From Cloacimonetes bacterium SCGC AAA252-N17 (lineage in GTDB: Bacteria > Cloacimonadota > Cloacimonadia > JGIOTU-2): 64,000 nt of DNA. The stretch spans positions 4,047 through 68,046 of the forward strand of contig ASNI01000004.1 of NCBI GenBank assembly GCA_000404785.1, read 5' to 3'. How positions within the stretch are numbered: position 1 is the stretch's first letter; every line of letters begins with the position of its first letter. Shown here piece after piece: positions 3,718 through 45,274 of the stretch. The position numbers were made by a program, and so were the translations under genes. The notes beneath the pieces were generated by a model that was given only the letters and a program-made list of their open reading frames with translations, was not told where the DNA came from and ran no database searches.

Positions 3718-3728
3718 AAAGGAAAAAA

Positions 3729-26432: not shown

Positions 26433-27689
26433 TTGGTGAAAAATATGCTCAAAAAAATAGACACAGCCCAATTGGATGCGCTTCTCAAGATTATACGGAC
26501 AATTAATTCCCATCTTAATCTTGATAAAGTGTTGGAATCCGTAATGGATGTCACTACTCAAGCAATACAAGTGGAAGCATCCTCCCTTGTTCTTATCGAT
26601 GAAGAAACGAATGAGCTCCTTTTCCATGTGACAGAAGGTGAAAAAGCAAAGATCATCAAAACGATACGGATGAAAGCGGGTGAAGGTATTGTCGGATGGG
26701 TCATAAAAGAAGAAAAAGCCGTGCTTGTTAATGATGTATCAAAAGACAAACGTTTTTACAAAGCTGCTGATAAAAAAAGTGGATTCATTACAAAATCAAT
26801 CCTCTGCGTACCTATGTGCACCGCTGATAAATGCCTTGGTGCAATTGAAGTTATAAATAAAATGAATAACGAAGATTTTGATGATGCAGATAGAATTTTT
26901 CTTGAAGCGATCTCTTCTCAGGCAGCTATTGCCATAGAAAATGCAAAACTCCACGAGCGTATCGTGAAAAATGAACGGCTTGCAGCTATCGGGCAAACAG
27001 TCTCCGGGCTTGCACATTGCATAAAAAACATACTTAATGGAATCCAGGGCGGGTCTTATATTCTGGATCTCGGAATAAAGAAGGAAAAATTCTCAAATAT
27101 TGATAAGGGCTGGGGTATCATAAAAAAGAATAACGAATTCATGAAGGAACTCGTGCTTGACATGCTATCATATTCCAAGGAGCGAGAACCTGAATACTGT
27201 ACTGTTGATGTGAACGAACTTGTTAAAAGTGTCTGCGAGCTAATGGAGCAAAAGGGAAAAGAGAAGAATGTTTCAATGCAATTTCTGCCGGAAGAATCTC
27301 TCAATGAAGTTGAGATCGACACCAAAGGAGTAAAGCGCTGTGTTTTGAATCTCATTTCCAATGCCATCGATGCTTGTGAAGAAGTAGACGGGGGCTCTGT
27401 CGATGTATCCGTACAAAATACAAAAGGCAAGATCTTCCGAATTCATGTTGCCGATTCAGGTATTGGTATGTCGTCGGAAACGCAGGCGAAACTATTCCAG
27501 GTTTTTTTCAGCACAAAGGGCTCAAAAGGTACAGGACTAGGACTTGCCGTGTCCTATAAGATCATTAAAGAGCATGGAGGAAATATTTCTGTTGACTCAA
27601 AAAAGGGGAAGGGCACAAAATTTACAATAACGTTACCAAAGAAACGAAAAAATAACTTATTGCTGGAGGTAAGCAATGGCAGAGAATAA
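26433..27689 (+). CDS. GAF-domain sensor histidine kinase
   Basis: N-terminal GAF domain, then a HisKA H-box (GLAHCIKNILNGI) and an HATPase_c domain (GIGM...GTGLGLAVS). Confidence 0.85.
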   Translation: MVKNMLKKIDTAQLDALLKIIRTINSHLNLDKVLESVMDVTTQAIQVEASSLVLIDEETNELLFHVTEGEKAKIIKTIRMKAGEGIVGWVIKEEKAVLVNDVSKDKRFYKAADKKSGFITKSILCVPMCTADKCLGAIEVINKMNNEDFDDADRIFLEAISSQAAIAIENAKLHERIVKNERLAAIGQTVSGLAHCIKNILNGIQGGSYILDLGIKKEKFSNIDKGWGIIKKNNEFMKELVLDMLSYSKEREPEYCTVDVNELVKSVCELMEQKGKEKNVSMQFLPEESLNEVEIDTKGVKRCVLNLISNAIDACEEVDGGSVDVSVQNTKGKIFRIHVADSGIGMSSETQAKLFQVFFSTKGSKGTGLGLAVSYKIIKEHGGNISVDSKKGKGTKFTITLPKKRKNNLLLEVSNGRE

Positions 27690-28074
27690 AAAGATACTTA
27701 TTATTGATGACGAGCCGGACGCAATTGCGTTTTCAGAAGCAATGCTTTCTGAGCTCGGAGAATTTGACATTGAGACTGCTATTAATGGTCTCGAAGGATT
27801 GCAGAAAGCCGAAATGATAAAACCCGATCTAATCATTTTGGATATCCAAATGCCTGTCATGAATGGTTTTCAAGTTTTTAAAGAACTTAAGAAGAAGGAA
27901 GCAACAGATACTATTCCTGTTATCATGCTTACAGGAATTGCATCAACAACAGGGCTTCGATACGATGCAAAAGATATGGGCATTACTCTCGGCTCAGAAC
28001 CTGATGCCTATATTGATAAACCCATTGAGCCCGAAGAGTTTCAAAAAACCGTCAGCTCTATTCTCGGACTGTAA
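27676..28074 (+). CDS. Stand-alone CheY-like response regulator receiver protein
   Basis: Has the ILIIDDEPD motif, …DLIILDIQMP, and the conserved Lys region. Confidence 0.85.
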   Translation: MAENKKILIIDDEPDAIAFSEAMLSELGEFDIETAINGLEGLQKAEMIKPDLIILDIQMPVMNGFQVFKELKKKEATDTIPVIMLTGIASTTGLRYDAKDMGITLGSEPDAYIDKPIEPEEFQKTVSSILGL

Positions 28075-28142: not shown

Positions 28143-30266
28143 ATGAAAAAGAAAAAACGAGGACTACAAAAGCAAATTCTAGTTCTCTATTTTTTATTCA
28201 CCTTCTCCCTTGTATTCATTCTGATCTTCAGTGTCTGGCAGCTTACCAAGCTCGGTATTTCAGAATTTGAATATGAGAGAATTTCCCGTTTGCTTACAAA
28301 TCTGAAAACACTTCAACGCGATTATACAAACAAACTAAATAATTTTACCTCTGAAATCGCAAATAACCCGGCTCTTGTTGCTTCTGTAGAAAGTCAAGAC
28401 TTTGAATCTATTCATTCAATACTTAATTCCTATGACGACCATTCTCTTGCAAGCTACATGGCTATCTTTGATGCTAAAGGCACTATACTTTATGGCGAAC
28501 AATGGGAACTTGTCGAATCTTTTCTGCCGGAAATGCTCTCCTTAGCAAAACAGAATACAACTCAAGGTTTTTCTGCAAGTTTTTCAAACAAGATATTCTA
28601 CTTCTCTTACACTCCTCTTTATTCTGAAAATGATCAAGAGAAAACATTTTTAGGGCTTTTTATCAATGTAAATCAGATATCCCCTTCTGAAATTGGAGCA
28701 GCTCAGGATCCCCACATATTTCTTTTGCCTTTTTCTGTGCCACTCAATCCAGAGCAGGAGATCCTTAAAAAAATTATTCCCGAACTCGACAAAAAACTTC
28801 CAGCTGTTTTAAAAACTAAAAATCGCGAATCTGTTTTACGCTTGAATGTGGAAACTGCTGTTGGGTTGCTTGTCAATTATAATATATTCCGCGAACCTGC
28901 CTCACTCACTGTTTATATTTATGATCGCGAATTCAATAAATTTTATCGTCAAAGTATAGTCTTCTTCTTCCTTATCCTGGTTGCATCAAGCTTGGTTATT
29001 GTCAGTTTTTTAAGCAACTGGTTCAGCAAAAAAATAATGCAGCCCATAAAACAGGTAAGTGAAAAAATGCAGAGGATCGAGAAAAATCCTCTTGCCATTG
29101 AACATATTGAAGATGAATATGGCGGTGAGTTGAGCGATATGATTTCTGCATTCAGCTCGATGAACAGGTCGATTGTCGAATATAATAAATCTTTGCTCGA
29201 GTATAAAGTCCTTACTGATAATATTGACATCGGAGTGCTGTGGATGGACTCAAAGATGAATATCCTTATTTGTAATCCAAGTGCTATGGGCATTTTTGAG
29301 CTTATTTCTCTCGATGAGATCATCGGCAAGAATCTGTCCGAATTCATTCATCTTGATGAAGATCTATTATCCAAAGCCCATGAAGACAGCGTGACAATTC
29401 CTCAGCTCGAAATTAGTCTTCCCGGCAAAAAGAAGTTTGTAAAATTTGTTATCCTGAATATCAAAGCTGTTGATGATACGGTCGGCTTGCGCATGGTTGC
29501 AACTATAACCGACATAACACAAAAAATTAATGAAAAAAGAGCCCGTGAAACTCTTGAAAAAGCCCGTGAAGCTCTCGAAATGGAAGTCATAAAGAGTAAC
29601 AAATTCTCCGAGATCGGAAGAAGGGTCGAAGGTGTGGTGCACAATATGAACTCTCCGCTTAATTCTATCCTCGGGTATGCACAGCTTGTGAAAAAAGAAT
29701 ATCCTAATAATGACGATGTAGATAAGATTATTGAGGCAGCTAAAAATATTTCACAATCCATAAAAACCTTGTTACGAAAAGTGCAACAAGATAATATATC
29801 TATGATGCGACCAATTGACATTAACCAGCTTATTGAGCAGGAACTCGAACTTTTAAAACACAATCTTTTCTTCAAGCATTATGTTGTGTTAGAAAAAAGT
29901 CTTTTTAAAGATCTTCCAACCGTGAAAGCAGTATATAGCGATATAAGCCAGAGTTTTACTAACCTTGTAAATAATGCCATAGAGGCAATGCGGGATAGTA
30001 AAGAGCGCAATATTTGGGTGCGCACATATCAAACTTCTGACTTTATCGCAATAGAAGTACGCGATAGTGGAGAAGGAATTGAAGAGAGATATCATTCCAC
30101 GATATTTGAACCTTATTTTACATCGAAAAAGGAAAAAGAACAAGGCGGTTTTGGTCTTGGTCTTGCGATCTGTAAAAATGTTGTAGATCGCTATGGCGGT
30201 TATATTACAGTGCGCTCAGAACCGGGTAAAGGAAGCACATTTACAGTATTTCTTCCCTATGAATAA
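28143..30266 (+). CDS. Membrane sensor histidine kinase (PilS-like by context), with two TM helices flanking an extracytoplasmic sensor domain plus PAS, HisKA and HATPase domains
   Basis: TM helix 1 near the N-terminus, and TM helix 2 at about residue 280 (IVFFFLILVASSLVIVSF). PAS domain (ILICNPSAMGIFEL). H-box VHNMNSPLNSILGY. C-terminal G1/G2 boxes (DSGEGIEE…GGFGLGLAICK). Confidence 0.85.
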   Translation: MKKKKRGLQKQILVLYFLFTFSLVFILIFSVWQLTKLGISEFEYERISRLLTNLKTLQRDYTNKLNNFTSEIANNPALVASVESQDFESIHSILNSYDDHSLASYMAIFDAKGTILYGEQWELVESFLPEMLSLAKQNTTQGFSASFSNKIFYFSYTPLYSENDQEKTFLGLFINVNQISPSEIGAAQDPHIFLLPFSVPLNPEQEILKKIIPELDKKLPAVLKTKNRESVLRLNVETAVGLLVNYNIFREPASLTVYIYDREFNKFYRQSIVFFFLILVASSLVIVSFLSNWFSKKIMQPIKQVSEKMQRIEKNPLAIEHIEDEYGGELSDMISAFSSMNRSIVEYNKSLLEYKVLTDNIDIGVLWMDSKMNILICNPSAMGIFELISLDEIIGKNLSEFIHLDEDLLSKAHEDSVTIPQLEISLPGKKKFVKFVILNIKAVDDTVGLRMVATITDITQKINEKRARETLEKAREALEMEVIKSNKFSEIGRRVEGVVHNMNSPLNSILGYAQLVKKEYPNNDDVDKIIEAAKNISQSIKTLLRKVQQDNISMMRPIDINQLIEQELELLKHNLFFKHYVVLEKSLFKDLPTVKAVYSDISQSFTNLVNNAIEAMRDSKERNIWVRTYQTSDFIAIEVRDSGEGIEERYHSTIFEPYFTSKKEKEQGGFGLGLAICKNVVDRYGGYITVRSEPGKGSTFTVFLPYE

Positions 30267-30281
30267 AAGTGAAATAAAACC

Positions 30282-31712
30282 ATGAAAAATGATATAACCC
30301 AGACAGAATTCTTCAAACAAAATGCTAAAATTCTCATTGTAGATGATGAACAGGACACATTGGATATTTTTCGCCGTCATCTTGAGGATGAATACGATAT
30401 TGATACAGCCCGTTCTGCCGAAGAAGCACTTGAAAAGTTAGAGAGTAATACCTATCATATTGCAATGACTGATATGGTGATGCCGGGCACAGACGGTATC
30501 GAGCTTCTCACACATATAAAGAAGCGCTGGCCCCATGTTGCAGTGGTTATGATAAGTGGAAAAGCTACAATAGGAATGGCTGTCGAAGCCATGAAAACCG
30601 GGGCTGAAGAATTTATAGAAAAACCGGTAGAAGATCTCGATCTGCTGAAGATCATCATAAAAAAAATACTCAAAACAAAATGGCAGCATGAAGAAATTAA
30701 GCGACTGAGAAGCATACTTGCACACGAATTTGATAGAACACAGATCACCGGAAACAGTCTTATCATTCAAAAGGTTATGGAAAAAGTAAAAAGAATTGCC
30801 CCACTCGACACTACTGTTCTTATAACCGGCGAAACAGGCGTTGGTAAAGATATATTTGCCGATCTTATATATCTTAATAGTAAAAGAAAAACGCAAAAAT
30901 TTGTTGCGGTCAACTGCGGTAGTCTTCCTGAGAATCTTCTTGAAAGTATGCTTTTTGGTCATAAAAAGGGCTCCTTCACCGACGCGATAAGGGATAAAGT
31001 CGGCTACTTTCAGGAAGCAGACGGGGGTACGCTTTTCCTTGATGAAATAACAGAAACCAACAAAACCTTTCAGGTAAAACTTCTGCGCGTTCTTGAGAAA
31101 GGTGTGGTCAGACCGGTCGGTGGTGATATTGATATTGAAGTTAATGTGCGCATTATCACCTCTACAAATAAGGACATTGAAAAGGAAGTAAAATATGGCA
31201 ATTTCCGTCAGGATCTTTACTACCGCCTTAATGTAATTCACCTTCATATCCCACCTCTTCGTGAAAGGAGGGAGGATATTCCACTCCTCACCAACGTATT
31301 TGTTCGCGAATTTAGAGAGAAATATGATAAGCCAAACCTTGAAATATCAGATACTGTTATGTCTGTCCTTATCTCTCAAGAATGGGAAGGAAATGTTCGG
31401 GAGCTGAAAAATGCAATCGAGCATGCAGTTGCAATGGCTGCTCATAATAAAATTATTCCAGAGGATCTACCTGACCATATCTATCAAACTAGAATTTCTT
31501 CAAAAAATATGTCTGCACAAAATTTTATGCACCTGCCATTTGCTGAAGCAAAAGAAGAGTTTGAAAAATCGTACATCGAGGGATTAATAAAAAACTGTAA
31601 CGGTGATGTTACTAAAGCTGCAAATATTTCGCAGATAAAAAGACAAAATATTTACGATAAATTTAAAAAATATCATATTGATATTAACAGGTATAGAAAA
31701 AATAATAGTTAG
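30282..31712 (+). CDS. Sigma54-dependent response regulator (NtrC/PilR family enhancer-binding protein)
   Basis: REC domain (ILIVDDEQD…DMVMPG), an AAA+ sigma54-interaction domain (GETGVGKD…ESMLFGHKKGSFTDA…) with a GAFTGA-like loop, and a C-terminal HTH. Confidence 0.9.
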   Translation: MKNDITQTEFFKQNAKILIVDDEQDTLDIFRRHLEDEYDIDTARSAEEALEKLESNTYHIAMTDMVMPGTDGIELLTHIKKRWPHVAVVMISGKATIGMAVEAMKTGAEEFIEKPVEDLDLLKIIIKKILKTKWQHEEIKRLRSILAHEFDRTQITGNSLIIQKVMEKVKRIAPLDTTVLITGETGVGKDIFADLIYLNSKRKTQKFVAVNCGSLPENLLESMLFGHKKGSFTDAIRDKVGYFQEADGGTLFLDEITETNKTFQVKLLRVLEKGVVRPVGGDIDIEVNVRIITSTNKDIEKEVKYGNFRQDLYYRLNVIHLHIPPLRERREDIPLLTNVFVREFREKYDKPNLEISDTVMSVLISQEWEGNVRELKNAIEHAVAMAAHNKIIPEDLPDHIYQTRISSKNMSAQNFMHLPFAEAKEEFEKSYIEGLIKNCNGDVTKAANISQIKRQNIYDKFKKYHIDINRYRKNNS

Positions 31713-32402
31713 AGTTGTTGCAATCGTTGCGATTCAGTTACAATGGTGTATAAATACCAAATTACAAATATCAAATATCAAATAAAATTTCAAATTTCAA
31801 ATCAACATTTCTTAGAAGTCAGAAAATCGATTCTTAATATTGTAAAAATACAAGCACAAATTTGAATTGGATACATTGAATATTTGGACATTTTGGTTTT
31901 TTACCCCGTGAGATAAGCCTTTATCTAATTTTGGTTATTATTAATTCATATTTACCCCTGTTAGATAATTATATATAATGTTTTTGAAACAAGCTATAGA
32001 ATATCTATCTAACAGGGTTTATCTAACGGGGTGAATTTTATTTGAAATTAGTAATTCGTCCCCGCGTCTGCAGGGATAGAAATTATAGAATTTATTCTCT
32101 ACGAACATTAGCGTCATAAATATATGACATACATCCCTAATATGTAATTATTTTATGACAGAATATCATCCTAAAAATCTTAATGCATTCCAAACGAAGG
32201 CGTTGGGAATGAGTATAAAATAGTTTATTCCCGTTCTGGAGAACGGGAATCCAGATGGCTATATTTAGAGTGCAAAATGTGGAGTACTTCTCTCCTGAGA
32301 AGGTTATAATAAACCTTTGTATTATTTTCAAACAGGTTTACTTAAAAAAATAAAATTGATCTTGACAGAAAAAAAAATTTTTAAAAAAGTCAAATAAAAA
32401 TT

Positions 32403-32419
32403 TGGCATATAATTTGCAT
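32403..32419 (+). promoter_or_regulatory. Sigma54 (RpoN) -24/-12 promoter upstream of the pilin-like gene
   Basis: TGGCAT-N5-TTGCAT has exactly the consensus spacing (GG at 32404-05, GC at 32416-17). It lies about 80 nt upstream of the start codon and downstream of the gene for a sigma54-dependent activator. Confidence 0.8.
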
Positions 32420-32500
32420 TATATATTTATATTAATAAAAGATGTGAAAATTCCCCAATTCCCGTTTTTTACGGGAAAAAAATAATGTTAGGAGGATAAC

Positions 32501-32944
32501 ATGGGAATGCAACAAATACTGCTCATTGTATTGAGCGTAATTATCGTAGGTGCAGCTGTCGCTGTTGGTATTACGATGTTCAGTACCCAGGCTGTGAACG
32601 CAAACCGCTCGGCAGTTCTTATGGACCTGAACACCTTTGGTGCAGCAGCTATAGCATATTATAAGACACCTACTGACCAGGGCGGTGGCGGCCACTCTTT
32701 TGAGGCTTCTTGCGACTCAGTTGGATACTACCTCGCTAATAACTATAGTACGACTGGCAAAACAATTACCAATGATAATGGTGATGTCTATACGTTATCA
32801 ATTGACGGTGATAATCTAAAAATAGTTGGTGTGGGAACTGAAAAAGGAAGAAGCACGGTGGTTGGCTGTGGCGACAGAGTTGGTGGCACAATGACTATTG
32901 ACCCTGAGGCATCTGACCCGCTTGTTCTAACCCTTACTAATTGA
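32501..32944 (+). CDS. Small pilin-like protein (candidate major filament subunit). It has an N-terminal roughly 25-residue hydrophobic helix but no canonical prepilin leader.
   Basis: N-terminus MGMQQILLIVLSVIIVGAAVAVGITMF, followed by a small Gly/Thr-rich globular part. The RBS is AGGAGG at 32490-95. It is driven by the sigma54 promoter and followed by a strong terminator. It sits at the head of the pilC-pilB cluster. Confidence 0.55.
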   Translation: MGMQQILLIVLSVIIVGAAVAVGITMFSTQAVNANRSAVLMDLNTFGAAAIAYYKTPTDQGGGGHSFEASCDSVGYYLANNYSTTGKTITNDNGDVYTLSIDGDNLKIVGVGTEKGRSTVVGCGDRVGGTMTIDPEASDPLVLTLTN

Positions 32945-32986
32945 CAAGTAAGACAGCAGATAGTAAAAATCGCTGTTTGTAAAATT

Positions 32987-33029
32987 ATATGGGAGGTTGG
33001 AATTGATGCCTGCCTCCCATATTTTTCTT
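32987..33029 (+). terminator. Rho-independent terminator downstream of the pilin-like gene
   Basis: A 10-bp stem (atatgggagg … cctcccatat) followed by TTTTTCTT. Confidence 0.8.
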
Positions 33030-33091
33030 ATTTACAGATTCCATGACAGAATGGACCGTAACAACCATAGGTTAATAAAAAGTAAGTAGCT

Positions 33092-34444
33092 ATGTTAAAA
33101 GAATATCGCTATCAAGGTATATCACTTAGTGGTAAAACCATACAAGGTATAGTATTAGCACATAACAATTCAAAATCTAAAGAGTTAATTAAAGGGCTTG
33201 CTTCCAAACATAGATTACGAATCAATTCCATACTTCCTAAGAAAAAATTTATTTATGTAGTAAAGCTGCCAAATGGGAAGAAGATAAGAGGTAGGCAGGC
33301 AGCATTTACCAAGCAGGAAGTAGCAGATGCCCTTGCAAAGATTGGATATCATAATGCAAAAATCCAACCCGTTCTTTTTGATATAAAACGCAAGCCATCT
33401 TCTGCAGATATAATGATGTTTGTTAATCTTAGTTCATTCCTGTTAAAAGAAAAGATGGCGTATGACAAGATTCTTCGTATGTTGGCAGACGAAGAATCAA
33501 ATCCTACATTAAAGGAAACCCTAAAGAAGATTGAAAGCCAGTTAAAATCTGGCAAAGAAGGTTCAGAAGTTTTTGCACGCTTTTCTGATATTTTTGGGAA
33601 ATTCCCTGCTTATATGCTTGGCTTGGCAACCAAAAGTGGTAATATGGCAGAAGTCTACGATGCTACTGCAAAGTTCATGGAACGTGATCAGGAATATAAA
33701 AAAAGTATGAAACAAGCATTGATTGCTCCAGCTCTCACAGTATTGGCTACAATAGCAGCATGCGTATGGTATATTGTTTCTATTTTCCCGGCAACTGCAA
33801 ATCTATTTATCAAATTTAATATAGAAGTTCCCCCTATGACAGCAGCAACCTTAAGAATGAGTAATTATTTAGGGGCTAATTGGTGGCGGATGCTTCTTCT
33901 TATTATTATACCTGTAATGATAATTTTGCGATGGTGGAAAACTCCAAAAGGGATGGTATGGAGAGATAGGTTTTTAATTAAGTTACCAATTGTAGGACAT
34001 CTTTTGCATAAATCAAGCATTGAGATATTTTTTAGAGTTTTTTCTGCTATCTATGCAGGAGCGGCTGATAATATAGCGACATTACAAGCTTCTGCAGAAG
34101 CTTGCAGGAATGCTTACATGGAAAAAGGGGTTAAGGAGATAACAATTCCACTTATGCTGAAAGAAGGTATGTCATTAGTGCCAGCCCTTGCAACTGCCGA
34201 TGTTTTTAACAGAACCACATTAAGCAGGTTGAGAACAGGAGTAGAGACAGGGAATGTTCTGCAAGCTGCCCAGCAGATTGCCCTATTCTATGAAAAAGAA
34301 ACAACATACAAGATAAAGAATATAATTCAATATGTTCAGACTATAGTTGGTGCTTTTATAGCACTGGCAATTACCATCTTAACCATAGTTTCCGCAGAAG
34401 TTGCCTTTGTATCACCTCCCATACCGGGAATAAGTGGAATGTAA
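33092..34444 (+). CDS. pilC: Type IV pilus / type II secretion platform protein (PilC/GspF family)
   Basis: Two T2SS-F repeats, each followed by TM segments (…PAYMLGLATKSGNMAEVYD…, …LQASAEACRNAYMEKG…). Confidence 0.85.
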   Translation: MLKEYRYQGISLSGKTIQGIVLAHNNSKSKELIKGLASKHRLRINSILPKKKFIYVVKLPNGKKIRGRQAAFTKQEVADALAKIGYHNAKIQPVLFDIKRKPSSADIMMFVNLSSFLLKEKMAYDKILRMLADEESNPTLKETLKKIESQLKSGKEGSEVFARFSDIFGKFPAYMLGLATKSGNMAEVYDATAKFMERDQEYKKSMKQALIAPALTVLATIAACVWYIVSIFPATANLFIKFNIEVPPMTAATLRMSNYLGANWWRMLLLIIIPVMIILRWWKTPKGMVWRDRFLIKLPIVGHLLHKSSIEIFFRVFSAIYAGAADNIATLQASAEACRNAYMEKGVKEITIPLMLKEGMSLVPALATADVFNRTTLSRLRTGVETGNVLQAAQQIALFYEKETTYKIKNIIQYVQTIVGAFIALAITILTIVSAEVAFVSPPIPGISGM

Positions 34445-34567
34445 ATTAAGTCATTTGTAATTTGTAATTTATCCTCGTTCCCAATCCCCAATTGAATTGG
34501 GGATTGGGAACGAAGTGAATGGGTTACCAAACTGGATTTGGTAACCAGAAATGTAAAAAAGAAAAAT

Positions 34568-36352
34568 ATGTTAGGAAAATCAAGATTAGGTCAAGTTCTC
34601 ATTGAACGAGGAATAGTTGATAAAGAAACGCTTAATAAAGCATTTCTAATTCAAGCTGATGAGGATCCGGAAAATCCAAGAAGGTTAGAAGAGATTTTAG
34701 TTTCTGACCTCAAAGTAGACCATGATGCTATCTTTGGCTTATTAGCAGACCTTTATGCCTTCCGAACTATAAATATTGACCCCGAACAGGTAGATACGAA
34801 GCAGATAAAAAATACAAAAGAGATACTATCAAAATTTCCCGAAGATTTTAAAAGAGAACTAATATATAAAAAGGTTTTACCATATCAAATATCTTATGGT
34901 CGCAGGGATAAACTCCTGGTCTTATCTGCAAATCCTACTGAAAAAATTGTGGAAAAAATCCCTTTACTCACTGAGTTCAAAAAATATGAAGTAGTTTATT
35001 GTCGACTAAGGACTTTAGAGGAACTTATTGACCTGATAGCTCCGCAACAAAATGAGTTTCTAGAACTTTTAGAAGAGGCAAGCGAACAGATAGAAGAGGT
35101 AAGGGAGCCAGGACGCATAACAGGAATTGATGAATATGCATTAGATGACGAAATCAACAAAAGTCTTTTAGTAAATCTTTATGAAGGCTGCCTTATAGAA
35201 GCGGTACGAAAAGATGCGAGTGATATCCATATCATTCCATTTCAAAGGTCCAATGTAGATATCTATTTTAGGATTGATGGCAAGCTCCATCTCTGGCATC
35301 GTCAGGAAAATACCGAACCAGAAGCTATGGCAGCTGTAGTAAAAGACCGCACCACAGGGATTGATAGATTTGAAAGGGATACAGCACAGGATGGCTTTGC
35401 ACAACGAATCGTAGATGACCACCTGATTCGCTTCCGTGTCTCTGTACTGCCAATGATATCTCAAGAATACGAAAGAAGATTTGAGAGCATTGCAATCAGG
35501 GTGGTAGATGACAGGAAAGTTATCACAGATTTAAAAGAATTAGGATTTCAAAAACAAGCAGAAAAGGATTTTCTTAAAGCAATAAATACATCCAAGGGGA
35601 TTGTAATAGTTACAGGACCAACAGGTAGTGGAAAGAGTACAACCTTAATGGCTGCACTTTATCATGTGTTAGACCCCTCAAAAAATGTACTTACATGCGA
35701 AGACCCTGTAGAATATGTGATTAGAGGGGCAAGGCAGTTAAAAATTGGACATAAGCTTAGCTTTGAAAACGCAGTTCGTTCTATTCTAAGACATGACCCT
35801 GATATCGTTATGGTCGGTGAAATCAGAGATAAAATTACCGCTGATGTTGCGGTTAAACTTGCTAACACAGGTCATCTGACATTTTCTACACTTCATACCA
35901 ATGATGCACCAAGTGCCATATCAAGACTCTATAAAATGGGAGTAGAACCATTCCTCCTGGCTTATGCTATAAATATTATAGTAGCACAAAGACTCGTAAG
36001 AAAACTATGTCCACACTGCAAGAAACCATTATCTAAAGAAAAGTATCAAGCAGCTCTTGATTTAGGATTAACAGAAGAGGACTTAAAATCTGGTAAAATC
36101 TTTGAAGCTGGTAAAGGATGTAAAAAGTGCACAGAAGGATATAGGGGAAGAATCAATATCTGTGAAGCATTATATTTTAGCCCTGAGATAAGAAAATCTA
36201 TTGTGAAAGCTGGAACTGAGATTTATGAGGAAAAGATAAGACAAATTGCAGAAAGCCAGGGAATGTTATCACTTCGCCAATCTGGATTAGAAAGAATTAG
36301 AGAAGGGCTCACTACTATATCAGAAGTGGCTTATGCTACCTCAGAGGATTAA
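34568..36352 (+). CDS. pilB: Type IV pilus assembly / secretion ATPase (PilB/GspE family) with an N-terminal MshEN-like domain
   Basis: Walker A motif GPTGSGKSTT, the His box TLHTNDAPSAISRL, and a tetracysteine motif CPHC…CKKC. The N-terminus carries RLGQVLIERGIVDKETLNKAFLIQ (an MshEN RLGxxLxxxG motif). The ORF track starts at a TTG at 34538, but the ATG at 34568 is preferred. Confidence 0.9.
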   Translation: MLGKSRLGQVLIERGIVDKETLNKAFLIQADEDPENPRRLEEILVSDLKVDHDAIFGLLADLYAFRTINIDPEQVDTKQIKNTKEILSKFPEDFKRELIYKKVLPYQISYGRRDKLLVLSANPTEKIVEKIPLLTEFKKYEVVYCRLRTLEELIDLIAPQQNEFLELLEEASEQIEEVREPGRITGIDEYALDDEINKSLLVNLYEGCLIEAVRKDASDIHIIPFQRSNVDIYFRIDGKLHLWHRQENTEPEAMAAVVKDRTTGIDRFERDTAQDGFAQRIVDDHLIRFRVSVLPMISQEYERRFESIAIRVVDDRKVITDLKELGFQKQAEKDFLKAINTSKGIVIVTGPTGSGKSTTLMAALYHVLDPSKNVLTCEDPVEYVIRGARQLKIGHKLSFENAVRSILRHDPDIVMVGEIRDKITADVAVKLANTGHLTFSTLHTNDAPSAISRLYKMGVEPFLLAYAINIIVAQRLVRKLCPHCKKPLSKEKYQAALDLGLTEEDLKSGKIFEAGKGCKKCTEGYRGRINICEALYFSPEIRKSIVKAGTEIYEEKIRQIAESQGMLSLRQSGLERIREGLTTISEVAYATSED

Positions 36353-36355
36353 ATA

Positions 36356-36766
36356 ATGAATACAGGTCAGATGCTTGCTCTCATTTTTGCGATTGCACTT
36401 TTTGCCACTATTGTGATGACTGTAAACTACTCTCTGCTCAGTCAATCCGAACTGGTTTATAGGGGAATGTATATAACCCAGGGACAAAACATATCGGAGA
36501 AATACTTTGATAAAATAGAAGCGGAAGCTATAGTATCAAATCCACCAATAGTTCCATTTGATTTCATTGGAGCTAGTTATCCTAATACAACTGTTTCTCT
36601 GGGTAGTGTTAATTATGAAGTATATATCTCTACTCAATATACAGATTCATTAGGAACACCAATGGGATTTCCCACAGATTTTCAACGAGTAGATATTAAG
36701 ATATATTGTGTTGGATTACTCGACACAATAAGGTTCAACAGATTGTTTGGTAAGGTAGATTTATAG
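36356..36766 (+). CDS. Small pilin-like protein (candidate minor filament subunit) lacking a class III leader
   Basis: N-terminus MNTGQMLALIFAIALFATIVMTV. 136 aa. Translationally coupled 3 bp after pilB. Confidence 0.45.
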   Translation: MNTGQMLALIFAIALFATIVMTVNYSLLSQSELVYRGMYITQGQNISEKYFDKIEAEAIVSNPPIVPFDFIGASYPNTTVSLGSVNYEVYISTQYTDSLGTPMGFPTDFQRVDIKIYCVGLLDTIRFNRLFGKVDL

Positions 36767-36773
36767 GTGAGAG

Positions 36774-37346
36774 ATGAGTAGTTTATTAGATGCTATTGGT
36801 GCTGTGGCTATCGGTGGATTATTCTTGGTTACTATGTTTACCACCCTTTTTAATGTGCAGGTTACAGGTCAGAATATCGGTTTACAGGTAACACTTAATC
36901 AATGTGCTGATGTAATATGTGACGAACTGGATAATTATTTGGGAAAAGTTTGCATTGATGTGACTGGTTCCGGGTCTGATACAATAATGGTTGCTGCATC
37001 TGACTCTTTTAAGTTTTGCTCTAACTGGGATGTATTTGCTGATATTACTACCTCAAGTGAAAATGTAATAAAAATTGCTCTGGGAGATAGTACGCATATT
37101 GGCTACCCAATGGAAGTTACTCAAAATGGTATTTTAGTATCAGGTACTGATATACCACTCTGGTTGAAAAGTATGAAATTTACTTATTATGATGTGGATG
37201 AGAATGAAACATTTATCCTAAAGGACATCCGTTCTGTTAAAGTGGAGATGGAATTTTTCCATGAGGGCTCTTTAGTTGGGCCTGGCGAAAGAAATATAAA
37301 TACAAAAATTATCTTCTGGAAATATTTTAAAAATTTGTATCCATGA
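36774..37346 (+). CDS. Small pilin-like protein (candidate minor filament subunit)
   Basis: N-terminal single hydrophobic helix AIGAVAIGGLFLVTMFTTLF. 190 aa. Confidence 0.45.
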   Translation: MSSLLDAIGAVAIGGLFLVTMFTTLFNVQVTGQNIGLQVTLNQCADVICDELDNYLGKVCIDVTGSGSDTIMVAASDSFKFCSNWDVFADITTSSENVIKIALGDSTHIGYPMEVTQNGILVSGTDIPLWLKSMKFTYYDVDENETFILKDIRSVKVEMEFFHEGSLVGPGERNINTKIIFWKYFKNLYP

Positions 37347-37635
37347 TAAAGCAATTAACAATCAATCAATTAAAAGATTGACATAAATTTGGTAATTTTT
37401 ATCTATGTAGAGTTATTAGGCTAGGTTCGAGCTTATCCCGAACCCACGAAAATTAAAAGATGAACAGGATAAATTTGTTGGTGAATAATGTTTAAGAACC
37501 CAAAAGTATATTTAGTGTTTGTCCGTAAAATAAAAACCTTGGTATCCCAATATGTCGGGATGCAATGGTTGATTTGTTCATTATTTATTCCCTATATATC
37601 AGGGATAAATCTGATACAGCGAATAGGAGGATAAA

Positions 37636-38538
37636 ATGGGAAAGTCTTTATTTATAGGCGTCTTGGTACTTACAGTCATTTTTGCAGCAATTACTATCAC
37701 TGTACAAAGACATTCAAGTAAAGTTCCAGAAATGCTATCTGTGAACCTGGCTGAGCAGCAGGCAGCAAACCTTGCTGCTTATGCCTTAGGTTATGGTATA
37801 AATAAGCTTCTTGATGGTAATGTCACTTTTTGCGATAGTATAAATGGATATATTGATGATTTTACTCCATTAGAAGTTTTGGATGGTTCAATTGATAGCA
37901 TCAAATTTACTAATGAATCAGATGGTTCAATTCGTATTAACTCGTATGTAACTTATAATATCAATGATAAAACTGTTAATCACCAGAGTGAAGCAAATTT
38001 TTCATTCATTATTGATGATGAAGCTGAATCAAATATTACATCTGCTCTTGTTTATGGTGGCTCTATTACTATCCATGCAAAAGCTGTTATTACGGGAGAA
38101 TTAACTGAAACTACAGAATTTAATTTTGAAGAAGTGTTTGGACTAACTGAACAGGAAGTTAAGGATGAAGCAATAAGTAATGATGCATTTATTATAAATC
38201 CAGAAAATAATACACCAATGCCAGACAGCCTTACATGGATAGAATTTGAGGGGGGTGACAGCCTCTTCAAAATTACAAATGATTGGACTGGTGCTGGCAT
38301 ATTAATTATTAAGGGAAATCTAAAGTGTACGGCACACACAACTTTTAATGGCATTCTGGTTGTCTTTGGTACATTAGACATTACAGCACATTCAAATATT
38401 ACTGGTTCTGTGTTTGTCGTGGGTGATACCAGTTTGGGAGCTCATGCTACTATTACTTTTGATGGTGATATAGTGGCTACAGCTTTGGAAAGTTTACCGT
38501 TTAATGTTTCTTGCAAGATTATCAGCTGGAAAGAATAA
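37636..38538 (+). CDS. Pilin-like or secreted protein with an N-terminal hydrophobic helix (a larger candidate minor pilin or tip protein)
   Basis: N-terminus MGKSLFIGVLVLTVIFAAITITV. 300 aa. RBS AGGAGG. Confidence 0.45.
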   Translation: MGKSLFIGVLVLTVIFAAITITVQRHSSKVPEMLSVNLAEQQAANLAAYALGYGINKLLDGNVTFCDSINGYIDDFTPLEVLDGSIDSIKFTNESDGSIRINSYVTYNINDKTVNHQSEANFSFIIDDEAESNITSALVYGGSITIHAKAVITGELTETTEFNFEEVFGLTEQEVKDEAISNDAFIINPENNTPMPDSLTWIEFEGGDSLFKITNDWTGAGILIIKGNLKCTAHTTFNGILVVFGTLDITAHSNITGSVFVVGDTSLGAHATITFDGDIVATALESLPFNVSCKIISWKE

Positions 38539-38644
38539 TAAAAAATTTTATTCCCTTATAAGCTTATTGAATTCGTAATACGGGTTGGTGCAGAATGTTG
38601 TGATAACCTATAATATTAATAATAGTATATTAAAGAGGAAAAAA

Positions 38645-39556
38645 ATGGATAAATTACAATTTACTGAAACAGAAAAAAGTATGTACAATTGGTGGTCAAA
38701 AATCCGCTGGTTTATGGTAATTATCCTTTTTGCCATAGGTGTTTTGCGGGTTCAGCAAACTCCACAGACCTATCCGATTATTATCTTTGTTATTGTATTT
38801 TTGGGAATATGTATCTTAAATCTTCTTTTTCATTTGCAAATTATTAAGACCACTAACATTATTGGAGCGTTTCAAATCGTTCTGGATATTGTATTTGCTA
38901 CCATGGTTGTTCATTTGACTGGTGGGCTTGAAAGTTCTTTTGTATGGATTTACCTAATAGGAGTGATTACTGCCAGTTTGGCATTAACAAAATCGGGCGG
39001 CTTTATCGCAGCCTCGATAGGTGGTATGTGTCTATTGGTGTTGATTCTTTTTTATAATTTTAAATGGCTGATTCCAGTTAATGGTTCGGCTTTTGATGTT
39101 GATATATCGTCACAGACCATCTTTCTGATTTCCTATGTAGGTCTTTTTACTACCATAGCCTTTATTGCGAATTTTATTAGTGATATGGTAAGAAACCTTT
39201 CATGGGAAGTTCGGACTAATGAGGAGAAATTTAGCCAGCAAGAAAATACACTATTGGAAATGCAAAAAGAAATCGTTGAAAATAAGAAAGACATTGGAAA
39301 GTATAAAGAAGTTGTTAAAACAGCCGCTTCACTCGCTGGCATAGACCATGACATAAATAATCCCCTTAGTGTTATTTCTTTGTCATTAAGCAGGGTAAAA
39401 AAAGCTGCTGCGGAATATGAGGACGAAAAACTTGCTAAGACTGGCAATCAAATAACAGAAGCTATCAATAGAATAAATAGTATACTAACAAGATTGCAAG
39501 AGTTAAAAAAGTTAGAATTAATTAAAGAGGAAAGAAAAAAGCAAAAACAGGATTAA
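38645..39556 (+). CDS. Six-TM membrane sensor with a HisKA phosphoacceptor domain but no catalytic HATPase domain
   Basis: Six hydrophobic helices and then IDHDINNPLSVISLSL (an H-box). The protein ends in a coiled coil with no N/G1/G2 boxes. The start is taken at MDKLQF, which has an RBS. Confidence 0.6.
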   Translation: MDKLQFTETEKSMYNWWSKIRWFMVIILFAIGVLRVQQTPQTYPIIIFVIVFLGICILNLLFHLQIIKTTNIIGAFQIVLDIVFATMVVHLTGGLESSFVWIYLIGVITASLALTKSGGFIAASIGGMCLLVLILFYNFKWLIPVNGSAFDVDISSQTIFLISYVGLFTTIAFIANFISDMVRNLSWEVRTNEEKFSQQENTLLEMQKEIVENKKDIGKYKEVVKTAASLAGIDHDINNPLSVISLSLSRVKKAAAEYEDEKLAKTGNQITEAINRINSILTRLQELKKLELIKEERKKQKQD

Positions 39557-39560
39557 TACT

Positions 39561-40415
39561 ATGAAAAAAAATATTTTAATCGTTGATGATGAACAAAATA
39601 TAAGAGAACTTTGTAAAGAGTTTCTTGAGGAAGAGGGATATAAGGTTTCGCTTGCTGTTGATGGTCAAGACGCTTTAGATAAAATGGAATATGATGATTT
39701 TGATCTATTTCTTGTTGATATGGCTATGCCCCGTATGGGTGGATTTGAATTAATGAAGATGATTAAGAAGAAACAACCCTTTGCGGTGATAATTATATTG
39801 ACCGGCTTTCCCAGTATTGAGGATGCGGTCAGGACGATCCGTGCTGGTGCATTTCACTACATAACCAAGCCTACTAATGCAGAGGAACTTCTTGAGGTTG
39901 TTAAAAAAGGATTAGAATATTCAGAAGATTTATATGGTCCTCTTCAAAAAGTCTTTGAACCTTTGTCAGAAACCGTCCACAAAAGAGGCCCAATTATATT
40001 GCATGGATTTTCTCCTGAAGATAAAACAGATTTTCTATCCTTGGGCAGCCTGTGTGAATATGATGTTGGCGTAAACATTCCTATAGGTGATAAAAAATCT
40101 GGTTCAATTATTTTAGTTGATCGCGGTGAAGTCTCAGTTTGGCTTAATAATACAATTGTAGATTATCTCCAAAAATGGGATACATATGGTGAGGAACGCC
40201 TTATTTTAGCTGAATCTTTAATTACTAAACTTCGTGCTGAAACTGCTGTTAGGGTTAGATATTTTGACCGTAAAAAGATGTTAGATTTCTTTGCATACAA
40301 AGGTGAAAAATTGATGAAAAGATTTATGATTAATCTTATAAATTGTACATTTTCCAAATGGCGTAAATCCATTCAAAGAATTGTTATGCTGAAACTTGTT
40401 ACTGGAGAAAAGTGA
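39561..40415 (+). CDS. Response regulator whose receiver domain is fused to a C-terminal domain of unknown function (possibly PilZ-like)
   Basis: REC domain ILIVDDEQN…DLFLVDMAMP…ITKP. The C-terminal roughly 150 aa show no clear motif. Confidence 0.7.
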   Translation: MKKNILIVDDEQNIRELCKEFLEEEGYKVSLAVDGQDALDKMEYDDFDLFLVDMAMPRMGGFELMKMIKKKQPFAVIIILTGFPSIEDAVRTIRAGAFHYITKPTNAEELLEVVKKGLEYSEDLYGPLQKVFEPLSETVHKRGPIILHGFSPEDKTDFLSLGSLCEYDVGVNIPIGDKKSGSIILVDRGEVSVWLNNTIVDYLQKWDTYGEERLILAESLITKLRAETAVRVRYFDRKKMLDFFAYKGEKLMKRFMINLINCTFSKWRKSIQRIVMLKLVTGEK

Positions 40416-40538: not shown

Positions 40539-40946
40539 ATGGAAAAGAAGCCAATAAGAAGTTTTCACGACTTGGATGTTTACCAAAACTCTTATGAAGC
40601 GATGCGTTCTGTGTTTAACGAAATATTACCAAAACTGCCTGCAGAAGAAAAATATGATTTGGTAGATCAATTACGGAGATCAAGCAAGGCAATTCCTCGC
40701 CTTATTGCAGAAGGGCATTCAAAAAGGCATCAGAATCCCGATATATCGGGACAAAAATATATTGATGATGCAATGGGAGAATCTAATGAAACGATAGTAT
40801 CTCTCTCTCAGACAAAGGACTTATATGCCAAACATATAGATATTGAAGTATGCAAAAGGTTAATGGATACTTATGATAAAATTAGCAGGCAGTTATATAA
40901 TTTAGCATTAGTGTGGACAAAATTTGGTGAAAAAGATAAATTGTGA
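40539..40946 (+). CDS. Four-helix-bundle protein (TIGR02436; the '23S rRNA intervening sequence protein' family)
   Basis: Has the diagnostic N-terminus FHDLDVYQNSYEAMRSVFNEILPKLPAEEKYDLVDQLRRSSKAIPRLIAEG. Confidence 0.8.
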   Translation: MEKKPIRSFHDLDVYQNSYEAMRSVFNEILPKLPAEEKYDLVDQLRRSSKAIPRLIAEGHSKRHQNPDISGQKYIDDAMGESNETIVSLSQTKDLYAKHIDIEVCKRLMDTYDKISRQLYNLALVWTKFGEKDKL

Positions 40947-41088: not shown

Positions 41089-42306
41089 ATGAGCCTATCT
41101 TTTACCCCTGAAATGTTAGTAGGATTACCAGAATATTTAACTGGCACAAGTAGATTCCAGAACATTAACAAAATTATTACTTATAATGCAACCTGGAGAA
41201 AAGAAGCTTACGACAACCTAAAAAAATTACTCAAGCATATGCGAGAAATAAACGCCTCTGATATAGATTTAGGCGGACCTGGCGCAAAGAGACAAATCTG
41301 GTATAGAGTCTATGGGAAAAAATCTCCACATCAGGATATGCCTTCATACACTAATGATGAAGTTACCGCTATATTATTAAGTGTATTGTCCGATGAACAG
41401 AAAATAACACTTTTCAAAAACAAAAATGTAGACCTCTCTGTAGGAATGGTATTAGAAAAGGGGGAAGAACCCAGCCGGTTCCGTAGCGATATCTATTATG
41501 AAAGTAATGTTTTAGTAGCAAACTTCAGACGCATCAACCAAGAACTATTTACAATACAATCTTTAAACTTTCCCGAATCAATTATCAAAAGATTAGACCT
41601 CCAATATGAAAAATCTGGTCTAATTTTAGTAACAGGAATCACAGGCTCAGGAAAAAGTTGCACATTAGACTCTATTATAGATATGAATAATCACAACAAT
41701 AACTCCCATATTGTAATTATTGGAAATCCAATTGAATATATCCACCAATCAGATAAATGTATTATTAGACATAGGGAAGTTGGTGAAGATGTATTAAATT
41801 TTAGAGAAGGAACAATACAAGCATTAAGACAGGACCCTGATATAATTGTTGTTGGAGAAATGCGAGACCCTGAAACAATTGCTACAGTTCTTGAAGCCAC
41901 TGATAGCGGTCATAAGTGTTTTACTACCTTACATACAAGTTCAGCAGTTGATAGTATGCATAGAATTATTGCTGAATTTCCTCCAAACGAGCAAGATAGA
42001 ATAAGGATAAGACTGGCAGATACCTTGAAAGTGATTATCTCTCAAAAATTAGTTCCAAATAAGCAAGGCAAGCTAACATTAGCAAAAGAGATTCTTTCTG
42101 TAGATGCATCTGTGTCCGCTGCAATAAGAAATAAAAATATCAACGAAATATATCAGATGATTACTGAAGGTAAAAGAAAAGGTATGATAACCCTTGAACA
42201 AGACCTATTTAATCTATGTAAAACCAATATAATAACAAAAGAAACAGCTATGAACTTTTCAAATAACAGAAAGAGAATGGAGCAGTTGTTAACTTACTCA
42301 AAATAG
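41089..42306 (+). CDS. pilT: Type IV pilus retraction ATPase (PilT/PilU family) with an N-terminal extension of about 60 aa
   Basis: Walker A motif GITGSGKSCT, the motif VGEMRDPETI, and the His box TLHTSSAVDSMHRIIAEFP. Confidence 0.85.
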   Translation: MSLSFTPEMLVGLPEYLTGTSRFQNINKIITYNATWRKEAYDNLKKLLKHMREINASDIDLGGPGAKRQIWYRVYGKKSPHQDMPSYTNDEVTAILLSVLSDEQKITLFKNKNVDLSVGMVLEKGEEPSRFRSDIYYESNVLVANFRRINQELFTIQSLNFPESIIKRLDLQYEKSGLILVTGITGSGKSCTLDSIIDMNNHNNNSHIVIIGNPIEYIHQSDKCIIRHREVGEDVLNFREGTIQALRQDPDIIVVGEMRDPETIATVLEATDSGHKCFTTLHTSSAVDSMHRIIAEFPPNEQDRIRIRLADTLKVIISQKLVPNKQGKLTLAKEILSVDASVSAAIRNKNINEIYQMITEGKRKGMITLEQDLFNLCKTNIITKETAMNFSNNRKRMEQLLTYSK

Positions 42307-44401: not shown

Positions 44402-45274
44402 ATGCCATATGTAATTAGAAATACAATCGTTTTAGCAGTTTTACTGTTAATTGTTTTATTTGTAAGTATTATCGGAAATGCAAATTCGGTAAGAAAATTT
44501 GAAGAGGCAAAGAAATCATACAATGAGAAAGTAAAAATGTTAGAAACCCTCAAGAGAACCGATCCTGATATAAAAGATGAAGCTCGAATTATAAAAGAGC
44601 TTGAGAATATGCAAAAAAAAGCACTTGAAAGCAATAAAGTTATACTGAAAGATGATAATCCGACTCTTTCATATCAATATTTGATTGGTATTTGTGATAA
44701 TTTTTGCCCTGATGTTAATTTTAACTTCCGAACTGCAGGTTCAGGCCAAATGGAAGACATTTCTTTCAATACATATAACATCTCTGGAGATGCTAATATA
44801 GAATCTCTTCATTTTTTTATTTATCAAATTGAATATCAGCCCCCACTTTATACAGTTGAATCTATCAAGCTTTCTGAACAATCGGTAGCTATGGCTGATA
44901 CAGTAAATTTTATGCTTGTTTTACGAGCATATTTTAATGACAATGGAACTAAATTAAAAGATATACCAATGAGAAGTTTTAGATTTACAAATCTAACATA
45001 TAACCCATTTTATTCCAGAATTCACGAGCCTATATTAAATATGGAAGAGGAAAAATATCTTAATGTGTATACAGCATCAATGATAGGTTTAACTCCGAAT
45101 AGAGTATTTTTGCGCGATGAAAATGGAAAAATTAATACTCTCACTCCGGGATACAAAGTTGCTTATGGCTATCTGGATCATATCAACTGGAATAAACAAG
45201 CTGCTGTATTTAAGATAAATCGTATCGGAATCTCAGAGAAAAAAATTATATATATCGAGGGTGATACACAATGA
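44402..45274 (+). CDS. PilO/PilN-like inner-membrane pilus alignment protein
   Basis: N-terminal TM helix (IVLAVLLLIVLFVSIIG), then a coiled coil and a periplasmic domain. Its position between the pilM/N gene and the secretin gene supports the call. Confidence 0.5.
   Translation: MPYVIRNTIVLAVLLLIVLFVSIIGNANSVRKFEEAKKSYNEKVKMLETLKRTDPDIKDEARIIKELENMQKKALESNKVILKDDNPTLSYQYLIGICDNFCPDVNFNFRTAGSGQMEDISFNTYNISGDANIESLHFFIYQIEYQPPLYTVESIKLSEQSVAMADTVNFMLVLRAYFNDNGTKLKDIPMRSFRFTNLTYNPFYSRIHEPILNMEEEKYLNVYTASMIGLTPNRVFLRDENGKINTLTPGYKVAYGYLDHINWNKQAAVFKINRIGISEKKIIYIEGDTQ

Follow-up and report, generated by a model that had tools for sequence, protein, structure and literature searches.

We describe here a short gene on the plus strand (32501-32944) of a 64,000-nucleotide stretch of contig ASNI01000004.1 from Cloacimonetes bacterium SCGC AAA252-N17, which we call the window. 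The gene encodes a pilin-like protein of 147 amino acids and lies between a conserved -24/-12 promoter and an intrinsic terminator, just upstream of genes for type IV pilus assembly. Together with the two-component genes that precede it, this arrangement quite probably serves as a cassette that expresses the major subunit of a type IVa-pilus-like filament in Cloacimonadota. Its regulation follows a known design, in a phylum where it is new; what is unusual is the subunit family. For comparison we used 79 related Cloacimonadota loci (L001-L079), retrieved by a genome scan with the family alignment. With the window, these loci hold 80 genes of the family and 828 kb in all.

In the mechanism we propose, the sensor kinase encoded at 28143-30266 would phosphorylate the adjacent NtrC-family regulator (30282-31712). 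The regulator would oligomerise on two TGTNAT-N6-ATNACA palindromes (32112-32160) some 260-290 bp upstream of the promoter, loop to RNA polymerase-sigma54 at 32403-32419 and drive promoter opening with ATP. Transcription would begin near 32429, and a leader of about 72 nt, carrying a GTGAA motif, a stem-loop, an A-run and a strong AGGAGG, would allow efficient translation of the 147-aa protein. In the protein, the invariant hydrophobic N-terminal helix would be the inner-membrane anchor, the variable head would lie outside, and PilB and PilC would carry out polymerisation. A hairpin and U-tract at 32987-33029 would halt most transcripts, and those that read through would provide much smaller amounts of pilC, pilB and the genes beyond them.

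Probable sigma-54 promoter and candidate enhancer

The promoter element reads TGGCAT-ATAAT-TTGCAT, with TGGCAT at 32403-32408, a spacer of 5 nt and TTGCAT at 32414-32419. It is intergenic, on the coding (plus) strand, 98 nt before the ATG at 32501 and 690 nt after the gene of the enhancer-binding protein. It differs from TGGCAC-N5-TTGCW at one position, and its GG and GC doublets are 10 bp apart (11 bp from start to start). Its significance derives from this position and from conservation in homologous loci, not from the window match alone. In the usual sigma-54 geometry the start lies about 12 nt beyond the GC of the -12 element, and on this basis we predict transcription to begin at 32427-32431.

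For each family gene we searched the preceding 200 nt for the sequence closest to TGGCAC-N5-TTGCW, taking as background 1494 random 200-nt windows from the same loci. Among the 80 family genes, 55 have a match with at most one mismatch, compared with 8 of the 1494 background windows (0.5%). Best matches with zero, one and two mismatches number 19, 36 and 16 among the family genes, and 1, 7 and 66 in the background. The matches lie 63-113 nt from the start codon. When 69 promoters are anchored on the motif, the GG doublet is present in 69/69, as is the TG of TTGC, the C of which is found in 61/69; a T precedes TGG in 59/69, and the five spacer positions show no conservation. As a sequence profile, the aligned family promoter is the published sigma-54 consensus. 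A scan of both strands of the 828 kb, again allowing one mismatch, gave 73 sites, 48 of them located 55-120 nt before an indexed family gene. About nine others precede further family copies or long-leader variants, which brings the sites before family genes to at least 57 of 73. A phylum-wide footprint in the sequences thereby supports a sigma-54 promoter upstream of the 147-aa gene. This bears out an earlier examination of the DNA (the sequence-only reading), which had proposed TGGCAT-N5-TTGCAT as an RpoN -24/-12 element with the right spacing.

Could the gene be transcribed instead by a housekeeping sigma factor? Some observations do weigh against the sigma-54 assignment. The -24 box of the window is TGGCAT, not TGGCAC, and a perfect TATAAT (32408-32413) lies within the putative sigma-54 spacer, from which a housekeeping factor might initiate, the GG/GC match being then a coincidence in an AT-rich spacer. 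Within the window, the sigma-54 match alone is non-significant: TGGCA-N6-TTGCW occurs once where 0.29 occurrences are expected, at least one match appears in 23 of 100 shuffles, and consensus sites with two mismatches are at chance level (30 against 27 expected). The rpoN gene was found neither in the 64-kb window nor in the related loci, where the result of the scan is a lead only; from the enhancer-binding protein and the conserved promoter we infer that the genome carries it. However, no acceptable -35 element is present 16-18 bp upstream of TATAAT, and a sigma-70 scan is silent on the site. TATAAT is itself unconserved: among the 69 loci the spacer is free, whereas GG and TTGC are fixed. 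Moreover, consensus sigma-54 sites in the 828 kb are almost exclusive to the pilin-like family. With neither conservation nor a -35 partner, the spacer TATAAT was rejected as a sigma-70 -10 element, and we consider initiation by a housekeeping factor very improbable.

The sigma-54 promoter calls for an activator, and the 476-aa product of the gene at 30282-31712 (plus strand) has the architecture of an NtrC-family enhancer-binding response regulator, with a Response_reg receiver domain (REC), Sigma54_activat (E = 1.7e-65) and HTH_8 among its Pfam matches. Its contact loop, GSFTDA, is GAFTGA-like; in 17 orthologues encoded upstream of family genes the loop follows G[AS]FT[GDS]A, in which F and T never change. 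These features, and the candidate enhancer that co-occurs with the gene, agree with the earlier proposal of a likely enhancer-binding activator upstream of the pilin-like gene. The preceding gene (28143-30266, plus strand) encodes a sensor histidine kinase of 707 aa, with a transmembrane (TM) segment, an extracytoplasmic segment of about 235 aa, a second TM segment, then HAMP, PAS, HisKA and HATPase domains. Its best NCBIfam match is AtoS, under the cutoff. Kinase and activator genes are syntenic in related loci, and judging from their sequences and order we presume that the two proteins are partners.

An alignment of upstream DNA from close relatives brought out recurrent TGTYAT-N6-ATKACA palindromes. 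The window has two of these in the 790-nt spacer (31713-32500) between the activator and pilin-like genes: CGTCAT-AAATAT-ATGACA (CGTCATAAATATATGACA, 32112-32129) and TGTAAT-TATTTT-ATGACA (TGTAATTATTTTATGACA, 32143-32160). They lie 31 bp apart, centre to centre, at -290 and -260 relative to the promoter. In the 400 nt upstream of the promoter, TGTNAT-N6-ATNACA occurs at 28 of 71 loci; among background windows the figure is 11 of 1404. It is found mostly at -116 to -172 and often in pairs 29-32 bp apart, mostly 30-31; such pairs also occur in L001, L003, L020, L023, L063, L047, L071 and L073. The palindrome accompanies the activator gene: 12 of the 15 loci with an upstream enhancer-binding-protein gene have it, against 16 of the 56 without (Fisher p = 6e-4). 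We regard the two palindromes as a candidate enhancer (upstream activating sequence), to which the activator may bind.

A further point that fits this assignment poorly is that the candidate enhancer of the window is about 130 bp farther upstream than in most relatives. A third palindrome, between enhancer and promoter at 32227-32250, may account for the displacement. It is a perfect 11-bp palindrome, ATTCCCGTTCT-GG-AGAACGGGAAT, whose TTCCCGT half-site recurs in the leader hairpin described below; across the window TTCCCGT shows only mild enrichment. Because this palindrome is absent even from the closest relatives, we rejected it as an enhancer; for the same reason it is probably a recent insertion, which moved the enhancer some 130 bp away from the promoter. 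Read on the minus strand, it also has the score of a terminator.

One clade (L026, L028, L040, L041, L043, L044, L050, L068 and L070) has a second TTGGCA(C) about 10-11 nt upstream of the -24 box. The resulting -24 boxes are duplicated or overlapping, one helical turn apart (for example cattggcacaatTGGCAC); the window lacks the second copy.

Leader, terminator and probable read-through

If transcription begins some 12 nt past the GC doublet, the leader measures about 72 nt. On the plus strand it comprises the motif AGATGTGAAAA (32440-32450), a stem-loop TTCCCGT-N5-ACGGGAA with a 7-bp stem and a 5-nt loop (32459-32477), followed by an A-run, and a Shine-Dalgarno sequence AGGAGG (32490-32495) 5 nt before the ATG. 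A leader of this length with its hairpin and AGGAGG had been described in the sequence-only reading, and each of these is where it was said to be. The 81-nt leader region folds with -19.8 kcal/mol (z = -2.9). GGAGG or GGAGA stands at the Shine-Dalgarno position in nearly all loci. The hairpin is lineage-specific, not family-wide: it is shared by the window, L014 (with one G-U change) and L055, and other clades have hairpins of different sequence elsewhere in the leader, often at its predicted 5' end.

The motif at 32440-32450 represents TAGA(N)GTGAA, a family consensus that 50 of 69 leaders contain; on visual inspection it often comes in two copies 12-15 nt apart. It occurs 54 times in the 828 kb, and 28 of these occurrences fall within -90 to -20 of family genes, where it is about 300-fold enriched. 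The motif lies between the promoter and the ribosome-binding site, and its distance to the -12 element varies; it is therefore not a part of the promoter. The motif may act as an RNA element or as an operator.

Two hairpins follow the coding region on the plus strand. The one at 32956-32980 has no U-tract. The other, at 32987-33029, is an intrinsic terminator with a stem of 10-11 bp (ATATGGGAGG/CCTCCCATAT, arms at 32987-32996 and 33013-33022), a 16-nt loop and, after the stem, the tract TTTTTCTTATTT (fuller T-tract, TTTTTCTT). The 101-nt terminator region folds with -32.3 kcal/mol (z = -4.9). Our automated terminator scan, which was limited to loops of 8 nt, did not report it because of the longer loop. 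Across the comparison set, a hairpin with a T-tract (dG <= -14 kcal/mol, within 125 nt of the stop codon) follows 36 of the 80 family genes, compared with 8 in 434 random windows, with stem sequences that differ from clade to clade. The terminator with a 10-bp stem announced after the gene by the sequence-only reading is in place, and it recurs in the family.

The same reading spoke of attenuated read-through into pilC, a claim to which the architecture of the relatives lends support. In many loci the spacer between the pilin-like gene and pilC measures 74-98 nt and is filled by the hairpin, with pilC starting 10-30 nt after the T-tract. This leaves no space for a separate pilC promoter, which makes read-through of a partial terminator the simplest route to expression of pilC and pilB. 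Partial intrinsic terminators set subunit-to-machinery ratios within operons as a general principle. The likeness here is a strong hairpin with a U-tract placed directly between the gene of an abundant structural protein and those of scarcer assembly proteins; the difference is that partial termination is deduced from the 74-98-nt spacers of relatives.

Alternatively, the hairpin at 32987-33029 may be a full stop or an mRNA-stabilising 3' end, with pilC and pilB transcribed independently. The stem is strong and a good T-tract follows it; the window has 63 nt between terminator and pilC, and one variant of the locus (L083) has a two-gene insertion at this very place. However, the short spacers of many relatives are too small for a promoter, and the 63 nt of the window contain no sigma-54 site and no good sigma-70-like site. 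We thus find independent transcription quite unlikely, and sequence architecture points to partial termination with read-through into pilC-pilB.

The insertion in L083, a metagenome variant of the exact locus, spans 3579-4035 of that sequence. It consists of a nucleotidyltransferase gene (NTP_transf_2/Polbeta) and a 53-aa open reading frame (ORF), and has a toxin-antitoxin-like look.

The pilin-like subunit family

The 147-aa protein begins with MGMQQILLIVLSVIIVGAAVAVGITMF and continues into a variable head domain. Across the family, residues 1-27 are almost wholly invariant (MGTQQILLIVLSVIIVGIAVAVGITMF), N33, N35, R36 and A38 are conserved just after, and the C-terminal domain is variable except for a YKTP..HGGGG loop. 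An in-frame TAG lies four codons upstream of the ATG. The frame therefore has no upstream extension, and the N-terminus is truly MG. It reads MG-T/M-QQILLIVL, with no basic leader, no F/M1 and no Glu5; Q4 and Q5 are invariant.

The family is large, with 341 matches in a word-indexed search and 1793 clusters at 50% identity in an exhaustive search (E up to 0.001). Wherever the sources give a family member a name, it is "hypothetical protein", and the named homologues of the 147-aa protein are all from Candidatus Cloacimonadota. Among the matches listed by the exhaustive search of representatives, we saw close relatives only and no bridge to known pilins.

The gene is encoded with type IVa pilus machinery: pilC and pilB follow directly downstream, and PilT, a PilMNO-like fusion and a PilQ secretin are encoded in the same cluster. 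By its sequence content this is a type IVa pilus cluster, in which the 147-aa gene is the sole candidate for the major subunit. An AlphaFold2 (AF2) model of the protein (pLDDT 85.6; 92.8 for a model of the head alone) predicts a 53-residue helix (residues 3-55), a short helix and five beta-strands. The first half of this alpha-1 helix is hydrophobic, and in the model the helix packs on an antiparallel beta-sheet. The modelled architecture is that of pilins in general.

A number of results count against identifying this protein as a pilin. A class III signal was not found, since the leader is MG only and Glu5 is absent. None of 30 family members matches PF07963 (N_methyl) at E-values up to 10, and the 147-aa protein matches no pilin family in Pfam or NCBIfam. 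HHalign, comparing the family with 22 pilins of PF07963 and PF00114, returned a probability of 2% over 15 columns. A profile search of the PDB gave a single sequence link, to the Geopilin helix, at a non-significant E of 0.19. Foldseek searches of the PDB with the full-length and head-only models yielded no significant match; their top ranks include the pilins 5ihj, 2ope and 5cfv (A. baumannii PilA, N. meningitidis PilX and A. nosocomialis PilA), at non-significant TM scores of 0.37-0.41. A prepilin peptidase gene (Peptidase_A24-like) was found neither in the window nor in the related loci, a result that is, again, a lead only. On its sequence the protein is not classifiable in the canonical prepilin family, and the N_methyl and HHalign results confirm the sequence-only reading in calling the subunit non-canonical.

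Is the protein, then, a filament subunit at all? It might be a membrane-anchored periplasmic or surface protein (a sensor, an adhesin or a pseudopilin-like piston) that is merely co-regulated with the pilus genes. Its lack of sequence or significant structural similarity to pilins would be in keeping with this, as would the missing Glu5, the two-residue leader without positive charge before the TM segment, and the reuse of the head domain, which turns up in lipoproteins, fused to a kinase and as a triple repeat. However, the cluster with PilB, PilC, PilT, PilMNO and PilQ offers no other candidate for a major subunit, and the gene occupies the major-pilin slot phylum-wide. The conservation pattern is also that of major pilins, in which the N-terminal helix is invariant, the head varies and paralogues stand in tandem; the model has the long alpha-1 helix packed on a beta-sheet; and the expression signals fit an abundant protein. 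In our judgement a role outside the filament is unlikely, and the 147-aa protein is probably the major pilin of a type IVa-pilus-like filament, into which it would assemble.

Tandem arrays of paralogues are found in L027 (six copies), L005, L034, L046, L049, L052, L059, L061, L069 and L075. The sigma-54 promoter is usually at the first copy, and some later copies have their own whereas others do not. These arrays resemble the variant or cassette arrays of pilin genes. The head domain is reused in P0158, P0167, P0211, P0188, P0223 and P0153, in settings that include lipoprotein signal peptides, a Ser/Thr kinase with a TM segment that keeps QQ(V/I)LL, a triple tandem repeat, and a zinc ribbon with a TM segment. 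Its positions behind lipoprotein signals and across the membrane from a kinase argue that the head is extracytoplasmic, as a pilin head has to be.

A bolder reading, which we hold to be rather unlikely, is that Cloacimonadota, and possibly some other bacteria of the FCB group, make their type IVa pili out of a subunit family lacking both the class III signal peptide and Glu5. The mature N-terminus would then arise by removal of Met or Met-Gly only, or the protein would stay unprocessed, and the invariant Gln-Gln would replace the salt bridge from Glu5 to the N-terminus. A canonical PilB/PilC/PilT/PilQ machine would assemble a subunit not recognisably homologous to known pilins, and TAGA(N)GTGAA, often doubled, would be a dedicated post-initiation control site for the pilin mRNA. 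If the subunit does polymerise without a prepilin leader and Glu5, two features regarded as near-universal in bacterial type IV filaments would not be obligatory.

Known pilin circuits and the surrounding genes

In Pseudomonas aeruginosa and Myxococcus xanthus, a two-component kinase, an NtrC-type activator and sigma-54 control the major pilin gene. The sequence-only reading held that the locus mirrors this pilA-pilSR logic. The sigma-54/NtrC-type design is indeed matched, and the Myxococcus gene order, pilS-pilR-pilA, is similar. The kinase, however, does not correspond: the one encoded upstream combines a two-TM periplasmic sensor with HAMP and PAS, instead of the six-TM PilS domain, which sets the pair apart from PilS-PilR. 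A PilS-type protein with six TM segments and HisKA is encoded separately in the window, without a catalytic domain, downstream of the minor-pilin-like genes. P. aeruginosa also differs in that its pilA is divergent from pilBCD, whereas the pilin-like gene of the window heads a pilC-pilB operon, with a terminator between.

The separate PilS-type protein (38585-39556, plus strand) matches 6TM_PilS (PF25323, E = 1.4e-9) and HisKA, with an H-box HDINNPL, and has no HATPase_c. The next gene (39561-40415, plus strand) encodes a REC protein with a C-terminal domain of about 160 aa, and the pair is conserved in many loci. PilS is a sensor of pilin, and by analogy the pair at 38585-40415 could be a pilin-sensing branch, perhaps a pilin-responsive phosphatase.

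The regulatory design matches that of RpoN/PilR-dependent pilA genes, and Geobacter offers the closest case. In Geobacter sulfurreducens, pilR, the gene of an enhancer-binding response regulator, lies immediately upstream of the RpoN-dependent pilA with its -24/-12 promoter (PMC2725144). Geobacter PilA and the Cloacimonadota protein are both small subunits with a dominant N-terminal helix. However, Geobacter PilA is a canonical prepilin, whose leader ends in Gly and is followed by F1 and E5, whereas the Cloacimonadota family has only MG before TQQILL and no N_methyl match. The enhancer TGTNAT-N6-ATNACA is, for its part, proposed from the Cloacimonadota comparison alone. With canonical type IVa pilins (PF07963 and PF00114), the family shares a conserved N-terminus and a variable head, a predicted alpha-1 helix of about 53 residues with an antiparallel-sheet head, and the linkage to PilB, PilC, PilT and PilM-Q. 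It differs from them in having no basic leader, no F/M1 and no E5, and in its invariant Q4 and Q5.

Our literature search found no paper linking Cloacimonadota with sigma-54, and the type IV pilus genes of this phylum are mentioned there only in passing. With this locus, sigma-54/NtrC-type control, which is known to govern major pilin genes in Proteobacteria and Myxococcota, gains an example in an uncultured phylum of the FCB group. The locus also supplies a testable map of promoter, enhancer and terminator. It further flags a large unannotated family as the probable pilus subunit of Cloacimonadota, a phylum repeatedly discussed in connection with syntrophy and pilus-mediated interactions in anaerobic digesters.

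The genes from 26433 to 46482 are on the plus strand. A GAF histidine kinase (26433-27689) and a single-domain response regulator (27676-28074) are encoded upstream of the sensor kinase. Downstream of the terminator come the pilC-like platform gene (33092-34444; T2SSF domain and PilC NCBIfam match) and the pilB-like assembly ATPase gene (34538-36352; T2SSE domain and PilB NCBIfam match), then genes for three small proteins with N-terminal hydrophobic segments (36356-38538) and the PilS-type and REC genes. A gene for a four-helix-bundle 23S-rRNA-IVP protein (40539-40946) separates these from pilT (41089-42306), whose product scores above the TIGR01420 cutoff. Next are a 693-aa protein with TPR motifs (42318-44399), for which its place in the cluster and a weak PilM-like match in NCBIfam suggest a PilM/N/O-like fusion, a 290-aa protein with no assigned product (44402-45274) and the PilQ-like secretin (45271-46482).

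The order pilin-pilC-pilB-three small TM proteins-histidine kinase-response regulator-pilT is kept in related loci, a synteny that extends phylum-wide, and the order histidine kinase-enhancer-binding protein-pilin is seen again in about 15 loci. An identical locus is present on NCBI contig AWNX01000006.1 (assembly GCA_000493925.1) and in several metagenomes.

The three small proteins of 136, 190 and 300 aa are in the minor-pilin position. None of them has a match in Pfam or NCBIfam. A Gly precedes the hydrophobic segment of each (MNTG-QML.., ..AIG-AVAIGG.., MG-KSLF..), and Glu5 is present in none. After the secretin gene comes that of a 647-aa LVIVD-repeat/fn3 protein (46346-48289).

A scan of 31600-33150 against Rfam at permissive E-values returned no credible match. 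To the left of the candidate enhancer, the part of the spacer at 31900-32035 contains nested inverted repeats, TTTACCCCGTGAGATAAGCC / GGTTTATCTAACGGGGTGAA and, inside them, CCCTGTTAGATAA / TTATCTAACAGGG. The same segment has tandem TATCTAAC(A/G)GGGT units, which give it a MITE-like or structured-RNA-like look.

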